In this document: positions 42,163 to 54,383 of the stretch, one piece after another
How the letters are laid out: each line of letters starts with the position of its first letter
Numbering within the stretch: the stretch's first letter is position 1
Virus genome (UHGV): UHGV-0090252
Source: a virus
Reading direction: 5' to 3' (one strand)
Length of the DNA stretch: 64,000 bases
Notes under the pieces: model-generated
What the model saw: only the letters and a program-made list of their open reading frames with translations
What the model was told of the DNA's origin: nothing
The model's database searches: none
Translations under genes and position numbers: made by a program

Positions 42163-42731
42163 TTAAAAGAGACTTGAGAGTTATGGAAAAGGGTGATGTA
42201 AAAGAAGTTGAAGGTAACTACCTAGTACTTGACTGGAGTGATGTTCGAGAAGCATTATCCAAAGAAAGCCTTGACATACTAGAGCAGCTTGTCTTCTCAG
42301 TACGGCATATCAGAGAAGTTAAGAATGGTAAAGAGCCATTAGAAGGAATCTTTGTAGAGAAGTCTTATCCGTTCTATGAAGACACTTTACAGAAAGTTAA
42401 GATGTACTTTAAACAGAAGAACCGTAAAGTGGTCACTATGACATCTCTTGGTGGACAGAATATGTCTATTATGGAAGATATCAACCCTAAGAGACCGAGC
42501 AAAGGTGTCTGTATAAAAATCACAGGGCATGAAGAGTATATCTCAGTGGATGATTTTAGTGTGTTCTGTAATGGTTCTGCTGTCTTTAATGGGTTTCACT
42601 ATGATATCCGAGTGTACCCAATCAAGGGAGATGCTGTTATGATGCAGATATTCGATAACAACAATGGATTCACTCATTTTTATCAGACAACCAAGTCATC
42701 ACTGAAGACAGTTCTGGAAACACTGATTTAA
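42159..42731 (+). CDS. hypothetical protein
   Basis: 190 aa. Confidence 0.5.
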   Translation: MIKRDLRVMEKGDVKEVEGNYLVLDWSDVREALSKESLDILEQLVFSVRHIREVKNGKEPLEGIFVEKSYPFYEDTLQKVKMYFKQKNRKVVTMTSLGGQNMSIMEDINPKRPSKGVCIKITGHEEYISVDDFSVFCNGSAVFNGFHYDIRVYPIKGDAVMMQIFDNNNGFTHFYQTTKSSLKTVLETLI

Positions 42732-42742
42732 AATATCTTAAG

Positions 42743-42773
42743 AGCCTCCTTAATTGGGGGCTTTTTATTTTTT
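42743..42773 (+). terminator. rho-independent terminator ending the plus-strand block
   Basis: AGCCTCC-TTAATTG-GGGGGCT followed by TTTTTATTTTTT. Confidence 0.65.
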
Positions 42774-42789
42774 ATAAAATTTTATCGGT

Positions 42790-44300
42790 TGTACCAACCT
42801 CTGGGTCACCATCATATGTGAATAAAATATCTATCCTTCTTAACAGCCTTCTTAATCTTACTCTCTATATAGTTATATAGTACTATATAGTATCTTAGTA
42901 ACTATCTAGTGGTCTTAATAGCCCTCTGTATAACCCTTCTAACAAGCCCTCTAACAAGCCTTCTAAACAACCTATACAATCACCTTAACCATCTCTCTAT
43001 ACTCTCTTAGAAGCTCCCATACACCTCTTAATCTCTAGGTTAGCTATGACACTCTCTATAGGTGTTCACTAGGTATTACTAAGCCTCTATATAGACTGTT
43101 TTAACAAACTTAACAGGAATATCTTCACAGACCTTATCTCACAAGGTCTAACACGGTACTAACAAGGTATCTTATAAGCCTGTTTCCACCTGTATTTTTA
43201 AAAGACTGTATAGGTAATTATTCAGAATTTTAAAATTTTTATAAAATAGGACTATCAAGTCATTTTTTTAGGGTCTTTGAAGGAACTGAAAAATATCTGT
43301 AGAAGATGTATATCTGCTTGGTAGCCCTTAACAGCTCCCTTACAAGTACTTTGCAGAATTTTAAAATATCATTAACAGTTTCTTAACAGTTCTCACATCT
43401 TCTTAACAACTCTTCAAAGGTCTTAACAGTTTCTTAACAGAACTAACAAGGGTTTAACAGTTTTCTAGGGATTGGTAACAATACCAATTAACAAGTGCTG
43501 AATAGGCTTTACAGAGGCTTAACAGATGACTAACAAGAGCTAACAAGTTAATTTTTAAGAGTTATTTTGTTAAGATAATTAACAAGTCCCTAACAAGTGT
43601 TTAATCTTTTTAACAAGCTATTAACATGGTCACTACTCTTTTCTTATCGTTCCCTTTCCTTTCTTAGTGACTTCTTAAACATACCTCTTAAAAGCTCTTA
43701 AAAGCTCTTTATAGGCTCTTTTAAGTCCCTCCCTAGTATTTACCCCTCAACTGTATGGATAGCTCTTTATAGGGCTTTACAGGAGCTTTTAAGGCTATGC
43801 CAAAGGTTCTTACAAGGTTTTTACGTGGTCTTAACAGAGATTTAACAAGGTGCTAACAAGAATAACTATGTAGGGTTTGTTAAGAAAATGTTAAAAAAAT
43901 GTTAAGGGGGCTAGCATTTACGTAACTTTTAAGCTACTTCAAAGTAACTTTATAACCCCTATAACATACTTTTTAATAGCTATCAAGGGGTTTGTTTAAT
44001 CATTCACAAGATACTAGCCAGCCTATAAGCTTTCACCCTTATAAGGTTCTTTTAAGGCTCTCAGAAGCTTTATAAAGGGCTTTTTAGGGTGGGTTAATAT
44101 GATTGCTTAAGTTAGGGTGATAAGGCTGTTATAGGGCGTTATAGAGCGTTTAAGGGGTTGCCCTTCCCTTTCGGGTTATGGGCTTATATTTAAGTTGATT
44201 TGATAAGAGGTTATAGAGTAGACTATAGAGTTATTGCTTTTTAAGGTCTAGTAAGATTCTGGAAAGGAAAGGGAAAGGGTTTGTATAAGGATTCGATAGA
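42790..44300. repeat. 1.5-kb non-coding region dense in short motif repeats (TAACAG/TAACAAG more than 25 copies; TATAGRG; CTTTTAAG), with a strand-composition switch
   Basis: No ORF of 60 aa or more; left part almost G-free on the plus strand, right part C-poor; lies between convergent terminators. Confidence 0.6.
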
Positions 44301-44303
44301 CGT

Positions 44304-44328
44304 AAAAAAGCCCCTTTGAGTAGGGGCT
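44304..44328 (-). terminator. rho-independent terminator ending the minus-strand small-gene array
   Basis: Minus-strand AGCCCCT-ACTCAA-AGGGGCT followed by T6. Confidence 0.65.
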
Positions 44329-44366
44329 GTTCAGGTATCTGGGGCTAAATAGCCCCGCTGCGTCGA

Positions 44367-44615
44367 TTAGTTAGTGCCTTCTTTGTCGTAGTACAGGGAG
44401 ACAATTTTTTCACCCCAATAGTGAAAAGAATAACCCTCTTTAAGAACTTCCTGTTTTGTTTCCTCCCAGAACTCATTAGAAGGATTATAGTCGCTGATGG
44501 TCTGACTGATAAGACCTTTCACCATTTCAAAGGCGTTATCAGTGCCTGCAATGTCAAATTTAACATCCAGAGAGTAAAAACCAAATTCGTTAACAGTAGC
44601 GCGGATAGTTGCCAT
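44367..44615 (-). CDS. small protein, array gene A
   Basis: 82 aa; ATG immediately follows conserved leader ...AGGAGATTCAAAAATG. Confidence 0.55.
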   Translation of the reverse strand: MATIRATVNEFGFYSLDVKFDIAGTDNAFEMVKGLISQTISDYNPSNEFWEETKQEVLKEGYSFHYWGEKIVSLYYDKEGTN

Positions 44616-44683
44616 TTTTGAATCTCCTAGTTTAAGGGTTTTATTTAGTGGGGAAGGTCATTCCCTCTCCGTTGATTGACAAT
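44616..44683 (-). promoter_or_regulatory. conserved leader type 1 (GC hairpin GGGAAGG/CCTTCCC-like plus SD)
   Basis: Fills the whole intergenic gap; near-identical copies before 6 other genes of the array. Confidence 0.55.
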
Positions 44684-45214
44684 TTACAGATTTTTGATTG
44701 TCTCATCAATATCTTTTTCAATATCTCTCAAAGTTTTTTCTAAGTTCTTGATATTGAAAGATAAGCCTTCTCCCAGTGTCTTAGCGTAACCATTGGGGCG
44801 CAAGTCATGCAGTTCGATTCCTTCCACTTCGAAGAGACTAACCAGCTCACCGCTTACAGTGTAAGCCATTGAAACAGTATTTACAGGGGCTTTATAGAAC
44901 TTGTTTAAGAACTTGATTGAACGCTCATAAGCCATTTTATAGCTATTTAAAAGGTTTTTAACTTGGCTATGAACGTTTTTGCACTCATCCAAGTAAATCC
45001 CTAAGAATAGCGGTAATAATTCTGCTACAGCTTGCATAAAGTGAGAGACTACAACGGTTGCAGCATTACGACGATGAACGTAATAAGCCCCGTTTTCTGA
45101 TTTGGTGATGGTTGCAAAGTGTACCCCATTGCAGCGAAATTCGTAGGTATCTTTGACAGGCTTTGACATTACAGCATTTGAACGAATATAGTTGATGGCT
45201 TTGAACTTGTTCAT
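44684..45214 (-). CDS. hypothetical protein, array gene B
   Basis: 176 aa; conserved leader upstream. Confidence 0.55.
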   Translation of the reverse strand: MNKFKAINYIRSNAVMSKPVKDTYEFRCNGVHFATITKSENGAYYVHRRNAATVVVSHFMQAVAELLPLFLGIYLDECKNVHSQVKNLLNSYKMAYERSIKFLNKFYKAPVNTVSMAYTVSGELVSLFEVEGIELHDLRPNGYAKTLGEGLSFNIKNLEKTLRDIEKDIDETIKNL

Positions 45215-45300
45215 TTTTGAATCTCCTAGTTTAAGGATTTTATTTAGTGGGGGAGGTCATTCCCTCCCGTTGATTAGTAATTTACTTGTTTTGATAGCTG
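45215..45300 (-). promoter_or_regulatory. conserved leader type 1 (hairpin GGGGAGG-6 nt-CCTCCCC plus SD)
   Basis: Perfect 7-bp GC stem about 45 nt before the ATG; followed by a further 140 nt non-coding gap. Confidence 0.55.
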
Positions 45301-45437
45301 ATTGCAAGCAATTTTTTAAGCTTATCTATAAAGAACCTTTTAAGTGAATCCCTTTTAGATAAACCCCCCTCGAACAACATTACCAATGTCAAGGGGTATT
45401 GTCAACACTTTTTTGAAAGTTTTTTGTAAGTTGTTGA

Positions 45438-45779
45438 TTAACTGATGAATATTTTTTCAGGTTTTACATAGCTGATACGTTGGATTTTTAGCAGGTCATC
45501 CCAGATTAGTGCGGCAATATGAGCATAACCGGATTCACGTAGAAGCTTCATTGCTTTACTTCTCGTTTCAAATCGGTTTGCATAGTACTCGCTGCTCAGG
45601 GTTGTTTTCTTCCCTTCATTGTCTACATGAATAATCTGCATTACTTGGAAGGGGCTTACATCCTCGCCTTTATTCCATTGCTCAAAGTATTTTAGGCACT
45701 GCATAGGTGTCATCTTATCACTTACTTGGGTTGACCAAGATGAATCCGGTTTATTGGTGATTACAGTTACATAAGCCAT
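45438..45779 (-). CDS. hypothetical protein, array gene C
   Basis: 113 aa. Confidence 0.55.
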   Translation of the reverse strand: MAYVTVITNKPDSSWSTQVSDKMTPMQCLKYFEQWNKGEDVSPFQVMQIIHVDNEGKKTTLSSEYYANRFETRSKAMKLLRESGYAHIAALIWDDLLKIQRISYVKPEKIFIS

Positions 45780-45870
45780 TTTTGAATCTCCTAGTTTAAG
45801 GATTTTATTTAGTGGGGGAGGTCATTCCCTCCCCGTTGATTGACAATTTACAGACTTTTATCAGGCTTGT
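45780..45870 (-). promoter_or_regulatory. conserved leader type 1
   Basis: Same sequence family as 44616-44683. Confidence 0.55.
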
Positions 45871-46104
45871 CTAGTCTTTTTCAATGATAATTTCATATTG
45901 ACCATCAACACTATCAAAATAAATGCCGTCGTCGTCTTCTGTCTTAAAGTAGCATTGAATATCATCACTTGCGGGGTAGTCTTGCCTTGCTATCTGGCAA
46001 ACTTGAATAGCATTTTCTTTACTTCCTGTAAACTCCTCAAGCCCTTTAAAATCGCATGAATGACCATTACAGATGGAAAGGATGAGATAAATGGTTGTAA
46101 GCAT
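45871..46104 (-). CDS. small Cys-containing protein, array gene D
   Basis: 77 aa. Confidence 0.5.
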   Translation of the reverse strand: MLTTIYLILSICNGHSCDFKGLEEFTGSKENAIQVCQIARQDYPASDDIQCYFKTEDDDGIYFDSVDGQYEIIIEKD

Positions 46105-46111
46105 GATTTAA

Positions 46112-46138
46112 GCCCTCTAAAAGCCCCTACAAGGGGCT
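46112..46138 (-). terminator. hairpin plus U-run (terminator or attenuator inside the array)
   Basis: Minus-strand AGCCCCT-TGT-AGGGGCT followed by TTTTAG; replaces the conserved leader before gene D. Confidence 0.45.
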
Positions 46139-46169
46139 AATTAGTGTTTATAAGGTGATTATATAGATT

Positions 46170-46712
46170 TTAGAAAAAGCTCTTTAAATCTTTCTCTGTG
46201 ATGTTTCCTGTCAGTGTGTCCATGATGTCACAAAAAACCTGAATACTGTCCGACTGTTGAACGCTTTTAGCAAGAAGTTCCAGAGACTCATCAAGATAGT
46301 TTAAATTTGGGTTATCCAGTGAAGGAAGACAAAAAGGCGAAAACATCGCATTAAACTCGGTTACGTAAACCTTTTTAATCCAACTTGCATCAAAGTACTC
46401 TGTAAAACTTGCCACGCCAGACATATTATCACAAGAATAATCATCATTCAGCTCATCCTCTGGAATATCAAGTTCCAAGATAACAATATTTTGAGTTTTC
46501 ATCTGGAAAGCGGCTGTAATAGTGGCATTACCTAATGCTTGCTGAATGCCTTCGGCTGTCATCTCTTCTTCATCGTCGCCATAGATTTTATTTTCTGGAT
46601 ACACGTAAAAATTACCGTCCATGTCCGAACAATTCCATGCGCCTGATGGTTTATCGCCGTTATTAATCAGGTTGAGGAAGTTTTCTTGAGTAGTACCGTG
46701 AAAGCATTTCAT
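46170..46712 (-). CDS. hypothetical acidic protein, array gene E
   Basis: 180 aa. Confidence 0.55.
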   Translation of the reverse strand: MKCFHGTTQENFLNLINNGDKPSGAWNCSDMDGNFYVYPENKIYGDDEEEMTAEGIQQALGNATITAAFQMKTQNIVILELDIPEDELNDDYSCDNMSGVASFTEYFDASWIKKVYVTEFNAMFSPFCLPSLDNPNLNYLDESLELLAKSVQQSDSIQVFCDIMDTLTGNITEKDLKSFF

Positions 46713-46797
46713 TTTTGAATCTCCAGTCTAGGATTTAGTGGTAAAGCTCTTTATCTGGAGCTTAAGATATCAACTTTTAAGCCCCCTGTAAAGTACT
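46713..46797 (-). promoter_or_regulatory. conserved leader type 2 (hairpin GGGGCTTAA-loop-TTAAGCCCC plus SD)
   Basis: Near-identical copies before array genes G, J, K (and hybrid before L). Confidence 0.55.
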
Positions 46798-47001
46798 TTA
46801 TCGGTTATTTTTGACAACTTTTAAAACAGCACGGTAACCTAAGCAATAGGAATCACCGAAGAGCGACCGACCCATGAAGGAGTCCTCTGTAATATCTTTC
46901 GCCGTGACGGTTTTTTCTACGCCGTGAAAAAGAACTACATCCCCGGCTTTAATGTCTTTGATGTGTGTGGTTTCAATGGTTAAGCCGTTAATAATAGCCA
47001 T
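46798..47001 (-). CDS. small protein, array gene F
   Basis: 67 aa. Confidence 0.5.
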   Translation of the reverse strand: MAIINGLTIETTHIKDIKAGDVVLFHGVEKTVTAKDITEDSFMGRSLFGDSYCLGYRAVLKVVKNNR

Positions 47002-47111
47002 TTTAGAATCTCCTAGTTTAAGGGCTTTATGTAGTGGGGGGGATGGTCATTCCCTCCCCGTTGATGTGTAATTTAATATATATATATAAAAACCAGTGTC
47101 AACAAAAATTT
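47002..47111 (-). promoter_or_regulatory. conserved leader type 1 plus (TA)5 tract
   Basis: Type 1 hairpin and SD; atatatatata at about 47078-47089. Confidence 0.5.
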
Positions 47112-47516
47112 TTAAAGTTCTGCATAAATTGCATCACAGATATTACGGAAGTCGTGATTTGACAAATTACGCTGCAACCAAGTGGCGAAAAAGTCAGCGA
47201 TTGCATAATTAGCATCATACTCGACGGATAGCCATACTTTTACGGCGAATCTGAACATTTTTAAATCAAGCTCTTTATTCATTACCTTAGATTTGCCCAA
47301 CATGTCAGCCATTTCATATTGCGCACCGTCTAGCGTGATACCTGCTGCAACGTCAGTTAATGAGTTTTTCACGTTTTCAACGTCTAAGATAACACTTTGA
47401 ATCTTCCCAATAATGTTGTGCAATGTTTCATCAGGTGCTGATGATGTCAGAACATTAATCCGGTTAACTGTCAAACGTGCTTTTAAGATTGATAACTCAC
47501 GGTTATTAATAGCCAT
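47112..47516 (-). CDS. hypothetical protein, array gene G
   Basis: 134 aa. Confidence 0.55.
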   Translation of the reverse strand: MAINNRELSILKARLTVNRINVLTSSAPDETLHNIIGKIQSVILDVENVKNSLTDVAAGITLDGAQYEMADMLGKSKVMNKELDLKMFRFAVKVWLSVEYDANYAIADFFATWLQRNLSNHDFRNICDAIYAEL

Positions 47517-47603
47517 TTTTGAATCTCCAATTTAGGATTTAGTGGTAAAGCTCTTTATCTGGGGCTTACTTTATCGAACTATAAGCCCCCTGTAAAGTAC
47601 TTT
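47517..47603 (-). promoter_or_regulatory. conserved leader type 2
   Basis: Hairpin GGGGCTTA-13 nt-TAAGCCCC. Confidence 0.55.
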
Positions 47604-47876
47604 TTATACTAAATGCAGTTTTTTACCTTTTACTATGATGTAACTTGATGCGCTATTACTTTGCACATCTTGATAAATTCTACGCAAACGGCCTTCGTAG
47701 TATACTTTCCAACTGGTTGGAATCTTTTTCCCGTATCCTGTAGCAGTTTTTTGCAGTCCTGCAAGTTGCCAATCAAGAATATGTTGTTCAGCTTGTAAAT
47801 CCTCGAAGTGCATTACGCCGTTCACATAGTGGCGCAGGGTTACGTTTAAGGTGCGACCGTTGTTAGTAGTATACAT
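47604..47876 (-). CDS. hypothetical protein, array gene H
   Basis: 90 aa. Confidence 0.5.
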   Translation of the reverse strand: MYTTNNGRTLNVTLRHYVNGVMHFEDLQAEQHILDWQLAGLQKTATGYGKKIPTSWKVYYEGRLRRIYQDVQSNSASSYIIVKGKKLHLV

Positions 47877-47966
47877 TTTAGAATCTCCTAGTTTAAGGGC
47901 TTTATGTAGTGGGGAAGGTCATTCCCTCCCCGTTGATTAGTAATTTACTTGTTTTTAAAATCAAAA
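47877..47966 (-). promoter_or_regulatory. conserved leader type 1
   Basis: Type 1 hairpin and SD. Confidence 0.55.
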
Positions 47967-48299
47967 TCAAGATAAATTTTTTCGTTTGCTCAGTTCTTGA
48001 ACAATTACAGCGTAGTAGTCTTTTAAGTCACTGATATTTAAAGCATTTATCAGAGAGTTATAATCATCGACTAACTGAAAATCATCTTTAAAGATGTCGC
48101 TGATTTGATAAGTTCTCGATTGAAATCTGAAACTCATTTCTAACCGTTTTATTTGTTCATCACTTAAACGCTCCAGAAAGCTCATTACAAGGCTATTATT
48201 GACCTGTTGCGTGATTGCCTTACTTGCCAGAGTATAGGCGCTGTACGCCTTATATAGCGCCATAATAGCAATGATTGCAGTGATGCCAGTCATTAGCAT
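47967..48299 (-). CDS. membrane-associated protein, array gene I (translationally coupled to J)
   Basis: 110 aa; N-terminal hydrophobic helix; 7-nt overlap with upstream gene, no leader of its own. Confidence 0.5.
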   Translation of the reverse strand: MLMTGITAIIAIMALYKAYSAYTLASKAITQQVNNSLVMSFLERLSDEQIKRLEMSFRFQSRTYQISDIFKDDFQLVDDYNSLINALNISDLKDYYAVIVQELSKRKNLS

Positions 48300-48589
48300 G
48301 GTGATTCCTCTTTACGTGATACTTTGCCGCTTACAGTTATCTCATAAGATTCTAATAAATCACTTTTAGACTTTACAGGGCTTTTAAAAGTATTATCGTA
48401 AATATTGACTTGCAATACAGGGTTTTTATACTCCCTGCAACTATTCCATAAGCAAATCACTACACGACGGCCTTTAATTTTGCCGTGTAACCATTCCATA
48501 ACATCATGATTATTTCTTGATGTTTCAATGAAATCAATTTTATTAAGTAACTTGCTCAGATTTTCACGAACTTTATTTGATAATTTCAT
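48293..48589 (-). CDS. hypothetical protein, array gene J
   Basis: 98 aa. Confidence 0.5.
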   Translation of the reverse strand: MKLSNKVRENLSKLLNKIDFIETSRNNHDVMEWLHGKIKGRRVVICLWNSCREYKNPVLQVNIYDNTFKSPVKSKSDLLESYEITVSGKVSRKEESPC

Positions 48590-48677
48590 TTTAGAATCTC
48601 CAATTTAGGATTTAGTGGTAAAGCTCTTTATCTGGGGCTTACTTTATCGAACTATAAGCCCCCTGTAAAGTACTTTA
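48590..48677 (-). promoter_or_regulatory. conserved leader type 2
   Basis: Identical over about 80 nt to 47517-47603. Confidence 0.55.
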
Positions 48678-48968
48678 TTAGTTAATTTTCAGCTTTGCAT
48701 GACCTCTCATTGTACGAATGGGGGAGGTTAAGGCTACGCGTCTAATATATGCCTTTTTCGTGTATATATTTGTCTTCCCGATAGTGTTTACACATGTAAA
48801 AAGGTTTATTGGTGAATTTTTTAACTTCAACTGTTTATCAACCTTCACGCCCCACCTTACAGCAGACTGTTTTCCGTTGTCAACAACTTTACCGCATAAC
48901 TTTTTAGCCATAATGCGAGCATCATCACGAGTTTTTGCAGTAATTACAACGTTTTTGATAATAGCCAT
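48678..48968 (-). CDS. small basic protein, array gene K
   Basis: Start set to the leader-aligned ATG at 48968 (ORF track extends to 48983 into the leader). Confidence 0.5.
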   Translation of the reverse strand: MAIIKNVVITAKTRDDARIMAKKLCGKVVDNGKQSAVRWGVKVDKQLKLKNSPINLFTCVNTIGKTNIYTKKAYIRRVALTSPIRTMRGHAKLKIN

Positions 48969-49054
48969 TTTTAAGTTCTCCAATTTAGGATTTAGTGGTA
49001 AAGCTCTTTATCTGGGGCTTAAGATATCAACTTTTAAGCCCCCTGTAAAGTACT
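48969..49054 (-). promoter_or_regulatory. conserved leader type 2
   Basis: Hairpin GGGGCTTAA-11 nt-TTAAGCCCC. Confidence 0.55.
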
Positions 49055-49438
49055 TTATTTGTTAATTTTGAAGATAGTTACATAACCATCGCTACCAATG
49101 ATTTGCGGCACTCCAACTTTTTCTACTGAATAGCCCATATTTTCAAGATGATAAATGGCATCATCATAACCATATGCGCCACCCTGATAACGTCTCTTAT
49201 TGCATTTTATCAGGTTTTTTCCACGTCCTGCAAGTGCATTCAGTATGGTTTTTTCGCTTGAGAGTGTACCATCTATCATGGTTGCCGTGTAATGGTTGAT
49301 TTTATTCCCGTTGATGTCATATTTAAAATTAAATGAGTGAACAACAATTTTATTGCCTTTGAAATTCTCATCAAGTGACTTCTCCAGTACGTTGCGAAAG
49401 TTGTCTTTGTTGATGAATTTCGGTGCACGATAAGCCAT
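49055..49438 (-). CDS. hypothetical protein, array gene L
   Basis: 127 aa. Confidence 0.55.
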   Translation of the reverse strand: MAYRAPKFINKDNFRNVLEKSLDENFKGNKIVVHSFNFKYDINGNKINHYTATMIDGTLSSEKTILNALAGRGKNLIKCNKRRYQGGAYGYDDAIYHLENMGYSVEKVGVPQIIGSDGYVTIFKINK

Positions 49439-49529
49439 TTCTGAATCTCCTAGTTTAAGGGTTAATGTGGTAAAGCTCTTTATCTGGGGCTTAAGATATC
49501 AACTTTTAAGCCCCCTGTAAAGTACTTTA
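49439..49529 (-). promoter_or_regulatory. conserved leader, type 1/type 2 hybrid
   Basis: Type 1 SD-proximal part joined to type 2 hairpin. Confidence 0.5.
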
Positions 49530-49736
49530 TTAGATATCGTAGTAATAAACTGCTGTCTGTCTTATGTGCTTTCTTGTATTTCTTGTAAGGTAGCAATCAG
49601 AGTTGATTGCTGTTTCTACATAGTTGCAATAGTCAGCTTCTGATATTCTAGACCATACGCCACAGATTTGCATGTAAAAACGTTTTACCTTTGTGTTAAC
49701 GTTAGTTGTAACCATCAATTCACGACCGTATAGCAT
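49530..49736 (-). CDS. small protein, array gene M (first gene of array)
   Basis: 68 aa. Confidence 0.5.
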   Translation of the reverse strand: MLYGRELMVTTNVNTKVKRFYMQICGVWSRISEADYCNYVETAINSDCYLTRNTRKHIRQTAVYYYDI

Positions 49737-49790
49737 TTTTAAGTTCTCCTAGTTTAAGGCTGTCGGGCTTGTCGCCCCGTCTGATGCAAA

Positions 49791-49818
49791 TACTATAAAA
49801 ACCCGTTCAAGGAGTCAA
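49791..49818 (-). promoter_or_regulatory. candidate sigma70-like promoter for the small-gene array (TTGACT ... TATAGT)
   Basis: Minus-strand TTGACT and TATAGT with 15-16 bp spacer, AT-rich upstream. Confidence 0.35.
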
Positions 49819-49979
49819 TGAAAATTTTTAAAAATATTTTTGGCAAAAATGTAATGAAACGGGTGCGCGCGATTACCACAAAACAGAACTACAATCAAGA
49901 ATTATTTTTCAATCCGCTACAAATTTTTCTGTTGACTTTTATTTTCAGATGTGGTAGCCTTGTGAGAAATGGCGACAGC

Positions 49980-50200
49980 CCCACCTACACCCACCTACCT
50001 GCACAATTCTCAAATGATTTTTCTTGCCCGACCTGATTTTTCTCTGCACGTTTTGAAAATGAAAAAGCTCTTTGGAGATTACCTGCACAGTTTGAAAATG
50101 AATTTTCTCTTTGGAGTTCAAAATTCTCTCTACAGATTTCTCTATAGAAATATACCTGCACAATTCTGAAATGAAAAAGCCCTCCTTACCTGAAAAATTT
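49980..50200. repeat. four imperfect direct repeats of CCTGCACARTT..AAATGA(AAAAGC) in a non-coding region
   Basis: Direct reading; only short overlapping ORFs on both strands. Confidence 0.5.
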
Positions 50201-50247
50201 ACCAGATAAGAAAGGCTTAGTCTATTGTGAATATCCTACGAAGTTTC

Positions 50248-51033
50248 TTAGTTCTTTGCGTCTAAGAAGGTAACTTCTGGCGAAGAGAAAACTGTCTCGA
50301 TATCCTCATCAGTTCTTGCATAGATGTAGGTGTCTGCATCGCTACCAAATGTCACGGCAATTCTATGATTGCTCTTCGACAGGTGGGTAACTAGAGCGTT
50401 ACTTAGAGACATCTTTTCAACCGGAGGGTTACTTTGATGTATCTTACCTTTTCTTCGTCTGAAGAGGGTAACTGCATTATCCGTGAACACAACTACACCT
50501 GCAAAGTATTCTGGTTCACAGTAGTTCTTCCAACCTGAGCGTAACTTGTGGTACATCTCTCCTTCATAGACATACAGATAAACATCCACACTCTTCATCA
50601 CCTGATTGATGATAACTGTGACAGCTTGAGGGTCAAGTCCACCAATACCTGCACCAATCATAGGTAAACCAACTTTCTTCAACTGATTGACTTCACAGTA
50701 TCTGTTAAGCTGTTTCAAAGATGACTCTAAAGCACTGTATCGTGCATCTTTACCAGTATGAAGTTGGGTGTAAAGGTTAGCTATACGACCTTGTTTTAAA
50801 CGTGCTACAGATAAATTACCTAGTAAATTTTCACAGGGTTTGTGACGAATGCCACCTGCAAACAGGTAAACTTCTGTGTCAGTATCATACACTTTTGGAT
50901 AACGCTTAGAAATAGTTGCTGCAATACCTGCACCCATGAAATTCATACAGTTGCAACCATGACCAATGATATCAAATTTACCTTTATCAAATGCTTCAAA
51001 GATATCACCTTTGATGATTTTTACAATACCCAT
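50248..51033 (-). CDS. macro-domain protein (ADP-ribose binding/processing) with C-terminal extension
   Basis: 261 aa; macro-domain-like motifs GDI..DIIGHGCNCMNFMGAGIAATI and VGLPMIGAGIGGLDP. Confidence 0.65.
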   Translation of the reverse strand: MGIVKIIKGDIFEAFDKGKFDIIGHGCNCMNFMGAGIAATISKRYPKVYDTDTEVYLFAGGIRHKPCENLLGNLSVARLKQGRIANLYTQLHTGKDARYSALESSLKQLNRYCEVNQLKKVGLPMIGAGIGGLDPQAVTVIINQVMKSVDVYLYVYEGEMYHKLRSGWKNYCEPEYFAGVVVFTDNAVTLFRRRKGKIHQSNPPVEKMSLSNALVTHLSKSNHRIAVTFGSDADTYIYARTDEDIETVFSSPEVTFLDAKN

Positions 51034-54283: not shown

Positions 54284-54383
54284 TGGTTCTCCTGTTTAGT
54301 TTATCGTGACAACAATTATACAGCACTCTGCACAAAATACAAATAAAAAAGGCCGCCGAAGCAGCCTTTTAAGAAATTACTTA

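Follow-up and report, generated by a model that had tools for sequence, protein, structure and literature searches.

Genomic setting of the gap

The window, i.e. the whole 64-kb stretch of DNA that was analysed, is by its sequence a Felixounavirus (Ounavirinae, Felix O1-like). A 1-kb query around the gap described here was 99.7% identical to Escherichia phage vB_Eco_Tribble and matched 248 phage records, nearly all of them Felix O1-like. The genes near the gap are all encoded on the minus strand, so the gap lies downstream of a macro-domain gene and upstream of an array of small genes:

50248-51033, minus strand: macro-domain gene (Pfam Macro; homologue of T4 Tk.4)
49737-50247: the gap, 508 bp, between the macro-domain gene and the first small gene
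49530-49736, minus strand: first small gene of the array, with its ATG at 49736

A sequence-only reading of this DNA had described a non-coding gap of about 500 bp between the macro-domain gene and the array. The description holds, as the gap measures 508 bp and no conserved ORF was found between the two genes. In transcription order, it contains the terminator t13, four direct repeats of about 26 bp, a cassette of about 54 bp, a block of about 70 bp, a promoter with an UP element, and a hairpin with a ribosome-binding site (RBS). The gap is a conserved non-coding control region where one transcription unit of a Felix O1-like phage ends and the next begins.

A coding function on either strand was rejected, as the repeat spacings (37/39/41) and the indels between genera (2, 4 and 6 nt) do not keep a frame and the starts are not conserved. 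ORFs have been annotated on both strands within 49945-50209 (TRIB_125, Phi87_49, Phi87_50, Sf15_gp10, Silverhawkium gp124 and ORF31-34 of AF320576). The hypothetical proteins annotated over the repeat region are very likely spurious, and the overlapping ORFs of AF320576, which occupy both strands, were dropped in RefSeq.

The macro-domain protein is 261 aa long, and its C-terminal ~110 residues have no Pfam match. Full-length homologues occur in 258 records only; other phage matches, such as T4 Tk.4, cover the macro domain alone. Phage finno carries a 39%-identical macro allele at the same position, with a different terminator hairpin and the same repeats. A Pfam search of the neighbouring proteins for a DNA-binding domain returned the Macro domain only, with nothing for the small flanking proteins.

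The terminator and the four direct repeats

The upstream part of the gap holds a terminator and, directly abutting it, the repeats. For each repeat, the score against a PWM is given:

50167-50218, minus strand: Rho-independent terminator t13, at the end of the macro-domain transcription unit (terminator scan, fold and Whichard 2010)
50153-50178, minus strand: repeat R4, TTTTTCATTTCAGAATTGTGCAGGTA, 33.6 bits; its T-rich half is the U-tract of t13
50080-50105, minus strand: repeat R3, AAATTCATTTTCAAACTGTGCAGGTA, 35.3 bits; an exact match to the motif
50041-50066, minus strand: repeat R2, TTTTTCATTTTCAAAACGTGCAGAGA, 33.4 bits
49996-50021, minus strand: repeat R1, AAAATCATTTGAGAATTGTGCAGGTA, 28.0 bits; orthologous to repeat Rc of Erwinia phage Ea_Tu10

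The terminator consists of a 17-bp stem-loop (50218-50177) followed by the T-tract TTTCATTTCA, with a fold energy of -25.8 kcal/mol (z = -6.6). A hairpin and T-tract occupy this position in five genomes, including those of a Mooglevirus, phage finno with its divergent macro allele and an Erwinia phage; the 5′ arms differ or the hairpin is entirely different, and the conserved 3′ arm of t13 pairs with three non-homologous 5′ arms. A GC-containing hairpin with an immediate U-tract, as expected of an intrinsic terminator, is thus present, and it is the structure rather than the sequence that is kept in relatives. The retention of hairpin and T-tract despite different 5′ arms indicates that t13 is probably a functional terminator. 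It was listed as a Felix O1 terminator in Table 2 of Whichard 2010, and the Tribble record annotates a terminator at the same position.

The four repeats of about 26 bp lie on the minus strand and share the core TCATTTTCAA-N3-GTGCAGG, with R4 starting within the T-tract of t13. The motif TTCATTTTCAANNNGTGCAGG, with 18 specified bases, has three copies in the window at ≤3 mismatches where 0.09 are expected, and none of 100 shuffled sequences reached three. The PWM was trained on 23 copies from six relatives only, with the copies of the window left out. It scores the four window copies at 28.0-35.3 bits; nothing else in the 64 kb exceeds 13.4 bits on either strand, two sites of 13.3-13.4 bits coming next after the repeats. 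The 25 kb of the genome that lie outside the window lack the motif. From these scans, the repeats are real, exactly four in number and confined to one locus. The four imperfect direct repeats of the sequence-only reading are therefore upheld, chance being excluded by the motif counts and the PWM scores. Its further remark that some copies are followed by a second motif holds for one copy only, where AAAAAGCCCTCC is the 3′ arm of the t13 stem read on the plus strand; after a second copy stands the similar AAAAAGCTCTTTGG.

Conserved positions form a TCATTTT(CAA) block and a GTGCA(GG) block with three unconstrained bases in between, and internal symmetry is absent. The GTGCA core is invariant in all 23 copies of the relatives and in the four of the window, while the three bases before it vary freely. 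A dispersed class of phage-specific promoters was rejected as an identity for the motif, which is confined to one locus. A cluster of DnaA boxes (TTATNCACA) was likewise rejected: the window copies match at 6/9 positions (ACCTGCACA), and the part conserved between genera is not DnaA-specific. The Erwinia copies reach 8/9 (cTATGCACA, TTATGCACg). Comparison by eye with the consensus sites of DnaA, IHF, Fis, CRP, Fur, marbox, sigma-54 and sigma-E gave none that evidently fits all copies.

The T-rich half of the repeat is also the generic terminator tail of this phage. Terminator t5 (52575-52558) ends in the identical tail TTTTTCATTTCAG, and in t2 (54370-54347) the tail is followed by TTGTGCAGAG, the PWM match of 13.3 bits. 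The tails shared with t5 and t2, together with the fusion of R4 to t13, tie the repeat unit to transcription termination. Terminator t2 (window 54300-54370, minus strand) is directly followed by TTTTGTGCAGAGTGCTGTATAAT, i.e. a repeat-like tail, and then by a perfect TATAAT. This region is a terminator-promoter composite resembling a single copy of the repeat unit of the gap.

Conservation of the repeat array

The 508-bp gap matches 258 phage records, and the repeat array is the sole part of it that can be aligned to an Erwinia Kolesnikvirus. The array is kept in Felixounavirus, Mooglevirus and Erwinia Kolesnikvirus, with copy-specific flanks, the same orientation and near-constant start-to-start spacing:

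Felixounavirus: 73/39/45 bp
Mooglevirus: 75/41/45 bp
Three-copy variants: 75/45 bp
Erwinia phages: 37/37/39 bp

In the Erwinia phage, four copies (TTTTTCATTTTnnAnnnGTGCATAG) lie between the macro homologue and a TTGACT promoter and are unique in the 85-kb genome; the array is a single locus in both genomes checked, one of the Felix type and that of the Erwinia phage. Taken together with the flank upstream of it (AGGTCGGGCAAG, minus strand), R1 matches the third Erwinia copy at 31/35 aligned positions. This copy-by-copy orthology between genera implies that the array is older than these genera and that each copy has been kept separately.

Diversity (pi) over the terminator and repeats is 0.045. 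In the adjacent macro gene it is 0.139 at third codon positions and 0.02-0.03 at first and second positions, so that the diversity of the array is one third of that of synonymous sites. Scans with a two-copy pattern of IMG/VR, of GTDB (one genome per prokaryotic species) and of metagenomes found the array only on Ounavirinae-like contigs of 80-94 kb or on short fragments of such contigs; the remaining matches were unrelated tandem repeats. A single-copy pattern is too degenerate for a database scan and gave noise.

The variable cassette and the near-invariant block

Between the repeats and the promoter lie two segments of opposite character, with a further promoter-like site across their junction:

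49941-49994: variable cassette of ~54 bp, with two non-homologous alleles of equal length (pi = 0.34)
49870-49940: near-invariant block of ~70 bp (pi = 0.038), conserved in Mooglevirus
49932-49960, plus strand: candidate divergent promoter TTGACT-17-TAGCCT, uncertain, pointing through the repeats to the macro gene

On the minus strand, allele A of the cassette, the one in the window, is rich in G and allele B is rich in C. An invertible cassette, with allele A as the inverse of allele B, was rejected for want of support, the score lying within that of shuffled sequences. Allele B (in L003) contains GGGGAGAGGGGGAGTAAGAGGGGGAGAGGGG on the plus strand, a textbook G-quadruplex motif, and allele A has shorter G-runs on the other strand.

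Several sequence records end in or near this segment. At about 49950-49962 of the window (L016, L017, L021, L002), two metagenomic contigs stop at the same base in the C/G-rich cassette allele. A third turns chimeric in the repeats, and the LMP34 ‘partial genome’ also stops at the cassette. The sequence that continues one contig past the cassette end is presumably Nextera adapter. Given their position in the G/C-rich cassette and the apparent adapter at one of them, these ends inside the gap are taken as assembly breaks, and the cassette seems to break assemblies.

Within the block, 16 distinct sequences do not differ over 49923-49894 (pi = 0.0). An inverted repeat in the block, AGTCAACAG (49937-49929) and TCTTGATT (49900-49893), carries a TTGAyT hexamer facing outwards on each arm; the arms are predicted to pair, and compensatory changes are absent. 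The candidate plus-strand promoter fits the pattern TTGAC-N18-TAnnnT, which is over-represented in the window (see below). Its -10 element sits in the variable cassette, and in allele B genomes it reads TAAGAG, without the T at -7.

The early promoter and its leader

The downstream end of the gap holds the signals that would drive the small-gene array:

49821-49841, minus strand: UP-element-like A/T block AAAAATATTTTTAAAAATTTT, at about -58 to -38 of the early promoter
49790-49818, minus strand: sigma-70 early promoter, with -35 TTGACT (49818-49813), a 17-nt spacer and -10 TAGTAT (49795-49790)
49737-49786, minus strand: 5′ leader, with a GC hairpin at ~49777-49765, the consensus Shine-Dalgarno AGGAG at 49750-49746 and the ATG at 49736

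The sequence-only reading had proposed a promoter TTGACT...TATAGT. The TTGACT and the promoter itself are well supported, being conserved in 25 relatives, and the -10 element is to be read 2 nt further on as TAGTAT. The TATAGT register would shorten the spacer to 15 nt, and relatives do not share the first two bases of TATAGT. Among 25 distinct promoter sequences of relatives, the -35 is invariant, the -10 is TAGTAT or TAATAT, and the spacer varies in sequence with its length fixed. Transcription is predicted to start near 49783 on the minus strand. Downstream of the promoter, TTGCATCA is near-invariant, TTACATCA taking its place in one of the 25.

The A/T block is nearly invariant in the same 25 relatives and is the sole such site in the window. 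The UP consensus AAAWWTWTTTTnnAAAA, reportedly that of Estrem et al. from 1998, is matched by AAAAATATTTTTAAAAA (49841-49825) at all specified positions with a 1-nt offset. The region thus has hexamers at a distance of 17 ± 1 bp and an A/T block at about -59 to -38, the sequence features of a sigma-70 promoter with an UP element. In the Erwinia phage, TTGACT-17-TATATT stands behind a similar A/T block. Intrinsic curvature of the DNA upstream of the promoter was rejected, as the A-tracts lack helical phasing. In the window as a whole, TTGAC-N18-TAnnnT occurs 18 times where 4.1 are expected, a 4-fold over-representation that fits a reliance of the phage on host polymerase. Felix O1 has no polymerase of its own and relies on that of the host (Whichard 2010).

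Judged on these sequence features and their conservation, both the promoter and the terminator are very probably functional. The terminator has been published; the repeat array and the promoter architecture are apparently new, as far as the searchable literature shows. That literature yielded no transcription start sites for Ounavirinae, and no termination efficiency, protein binding, transcript map or origin for the group, and the main text of the Bas63 knockout study contains nothing on the gap.

The small-gene array and a second non-coding region

Seven genes of the array have the same leader in front of them, with hairpin and RBS, and each has a promoter-like sequence of its own. The sequence-only reading had suggested that the gap controls the timing of the array. 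As every small gene has its own cassette of promoter, 5′ hairpin and RBS, the gap cannot alone time the whole array, and a role of the repeats in its timing is made less likely.

Over 44600-49760 of the window (minus strand), a cassette of either 107 nt (five copies) or 85 nt (five copies) stands before every small gene. Each carries the RBS CCTTAAACTAGGAGATTCAAAAATG together with a promoter-like sequence and, where the 5′ end is predicted, a GC hairpin. Relatives have different genes behind a given cassette, which makes the array mosaic. Two of the repeat families had already been noted (Whichard 2010).

Further along the window, a 1.6-kb non-coding region (42731-44367) separates convergent transcription units at a switch in GC skew. 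It contains more than 20 copies of (C/T)TAACA(A/G), at spacings of ~10 and 20 nt and densest at 43100-43860. Erwinia phage Ea_Tu10 has a similar TAACA cluster at a distance of ~7 kb from its repeat array. This region is a candidate origin or large protein-binding array.

Proposed function of the gap

The repeats are bipartite and asymmetric, which gives them the look of an asymmetric protein-DNA site, and on balance they are more likely than not protein-binding DNA sites. As a whole, the gap is best explained as an insulated transcription boundary with protein-bound repeats, an explanation that falls a little short of being probable. Terminator t13 would end the transcription unit that contains the macro-domain gene. 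The repeats would be DNA sites for one sequence-specific protein, encoded by the phage itself or else conserved in Enterobacterales. In a multi-site complex immediately after t13, it would strengthen or tune the arrest of transcription that arrives from upstream and set the following unit apart, with effects on read-through, on the early promoter further down, or on both. Past a spacer constrained in length and the invariant block, a strong promoter for host RNA polymerase would then start the array of small early genes. Its transcript would carry a stabilising 5′ hairpin and a strong RBS, this being the first and best of the similar promoter-hairpin-RBS cassettes.

A multi-site protein complex is favoured because of the bipartite, asymmetric site and the tie to termination. 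Against the boundary model, the distance of 180-390 bp between the repeats and the promoter downstream of them is large for a classical operator, and a unique cis element kept throughout the subfamily is more typical of an origin or packaging site. In work on Felix O1, the RT-PCR product of ‘ORF14’ peaked at 25 min and those of the neighbouring ORF13 (the macro gene) and ORF16 at 5 min (Whichard 2010). By its numbering between ORF13 and ORF15, ‘ORF14’ probably lies in the gap, and the repeats may accordingly be transcribed and might act as RNA. That the repeats serve a transcriptional boundary or the control of the early promoter, rather than replication, can be proposed only with considerable doubt.

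A packaging site or genome end would be one use of a unique cis element. A genome end, direct terminal repeat (DTR) or pac site was rejected here, since the DTR of UAB_Phi87 maps to 28840-29381 of the window, 20 kb away. The terminal repeat of UAB_Phi87 has been mapped experimentally, at 608 bp (PMC4837284). In NC_027360 (UAB_Phi87), 542 bp are duplicated at both ends and correspond to 28840-29381, within the tRNA region; the window probably includes the physical ends of the genome in phages of this type.

Alternative explanations

A replication origin, for which lambda ori, T4 oriE and the promoter-dependent primary origin of T7 are the models, would treat the four repeats as iterons for an initiator or helicase loader, with the A/T-rich block and UP region melting and the promoter activating or priming synthesis. 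The array does consist of several repeats in the same orientation at one locus; it occurs once per genome in a fixed orientation and is conserved across genera more than most coding DNA. Between the array and the invariant block, the spacer is constant in length though its sequence is replaced, a strong promoter adjoins the array, and the phage has a T7-like polymerase and a primase-helicase (with Pfam matches to Toprim and DnaB-like helicase/ATPase only) and no annotated initiator. This last point cuts both ways, as no initiator was seen among the annotated genes or neighbouring ORFs. For iterons, the spacings (37-75 bp) are wide and irregular; the region has an A+T content of only 65% and no 13-mer-like repeats, and GC skew does not switch at 50 kb. 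The TAACA region at 42.7-44.4 kb, which has over 20 heptamers and the skew switch and is also found in the Erwinia phage, is at least as good a candidate, and an origin in the gap is unlikely. It is quite unlikely that the repeats act as RNA, transcribed by read-through of t13 or antisense from the promoter at 49932-49960 into an unstructured sponge or decoy for an RNA-binding protein or nuclease. CsrB-type sponges and pseudo-ToxI are precedents for multi-site RNAs, and the repeat period of 37-45 nt resembles that of type III antitoxin arrays. The plus-strand promoter-like site fits the over-represented class, and the kinetics of ‘ORF14’, probably in the gap, differ from those of its neighbours. 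Opposed to this are a plus-strand -10 that is lost in allele B genomes and has no equivalent seen in the Erwinia phage, a hairpin without a U-tract on the plus strand, and the absence of a toxin-like partner gene. A known RNA family was rejected, as the six weak Rfam matches all lay far below threshold, with none to ToxI. A structured RNA was rejected as well: the consensus folds reach just -3.7 and -2.2 kcal/mol, and neither strand has conserved secondary structure or meaningful covariation. A ToxI-like antitoxin was discarded for the missing Rfam ToxI match, the lack of conserved structure and of a toxin-like neighbour, and the allele-specific plus-strand promoter.

The repeats might instead have no function of their own and be decayed tandem duplications of the terminator tail, homogenised by frequent recombination among co-infecting relatives. 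Their T-rich half does equal the generic tail, and the neighbouring gene array is highly mosaic, with repeated cassettes prone to recombination. This is nevertheless distinctly improbable: individual copies retain their particular flanks across genera whose non-coding DNA at the locus cannot otherwise be aligned, the GTGCA core stays fixed beside three freely varying bases, diversity is one third of that at synonymous sites, and the adjacent cassette illustrates how readily unconstrained sequence is replaced here. Tandem weak sigma-70 promoters, each repeat providing a -35-like TTTTCA, a 17-nt spacer and TAnnnT and adding to early transcription, would have a parallel in the three tandem early promoters of T7. 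A promoter scan does call R4 (TTTTCA-17-TATATT), TAATCT stands after R3, and in some relatives TAGGTT stands after R1. Even so, the spacer would then contain the conserved GTGCAGG, conservation is lowest at the putative -10, R2 lacks a -10 in every genome, and the Erwinia copies fit only a 15-nt spacer, mostly without TAnnnT, all of which leaves these promoters very improbable. There is also a low probability that the array is a new, Ounavirinae-specific cis element, either a decoy for a host factor or defence or a hairpin-less device for termination or insulation. As a decoy, for which the DNA-based aba element and the pseudo-ToxI repeats would be parallels, the DNA, or the RNA if transcribed, could titrate a conserved host defence or host factor, and the adjacent macro-domain gene is a probable counter-defence gene. 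As a termination device, it could be protein-dependent, hairpin-less and built from terminator tails.

Comparison with known systems

The early promoter resembles sigma-70 promoters with UP elements, such as E. coli rrnB P1 and the strong early promoters of T-even phages and T5, in its near-consensus -35, 17-bp spacer, TAnnnT -10 and UP-matching A/T block. It differs in that its -10, TAGTAT, matches the consensus at only 4/6 positions. Arbiol et al. reportedly described, in 2010, promoter-early stem-loop (PeSL) cassettes of T4-type phages, found in hyperplastic arrays of small early genes. The arrangement is similar here, with an early promoter, stem-loop and RBS repeated between small early genes and the promoter of the gap forming the first cassette. 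However, the phage family is another, there is no sequence relationship, and the four-repeat array has no PeSL counterpart.

With iteron arrays (lambda ori, T4 oriE, P4 ori/crr), the repeats share their orientation, asymmetry, a unit length of ~20 bp, a single locus and the vicinity of A/T-rich DNA and a promoter, but they are more widely and irregularly spaced, lack a skew signal and have a terminator fused to the first copy. ToxI and pseudo-ToxI are likewise tandem units of ~36-45 nt in a non-coding stretch beside a terminator; the gap has no Rfam match, conserved fold or toxin gene, and its promoter and terminator are not convincingly on the right strand. A precedent for a short non-coding phage element that has direct repeats and acts as DNA is aba, the 63-bp anti-BstA element of Salmonella prophage BTP1, which acts as DNA and not as RNA or peptide and requires its direct repeats (PMC8585504). 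Unlike the array of the gap, to which it has no sequence similarity, aba lies inside a defence gene of a temperate phage. Felix O1 was reported to be insensitive to BstA (PMC8585504), with no link to the gap region.

Significance

Felix O1-type phages are widely used in Salmonella typing, biocontrol and therapy, and are now being engineered (e.g. Bas63). On the practical side, several GenBank records carry spurious ORFs over the gap, and assemblies tend to break in the G/C-rich cassette. For annotation and engineering, the gap gives a well-defined pair of a strong early promoter and a terminator. A binding partner of the repeats could reveal how early and later transcription are separated, or where replication starts, in these phages.
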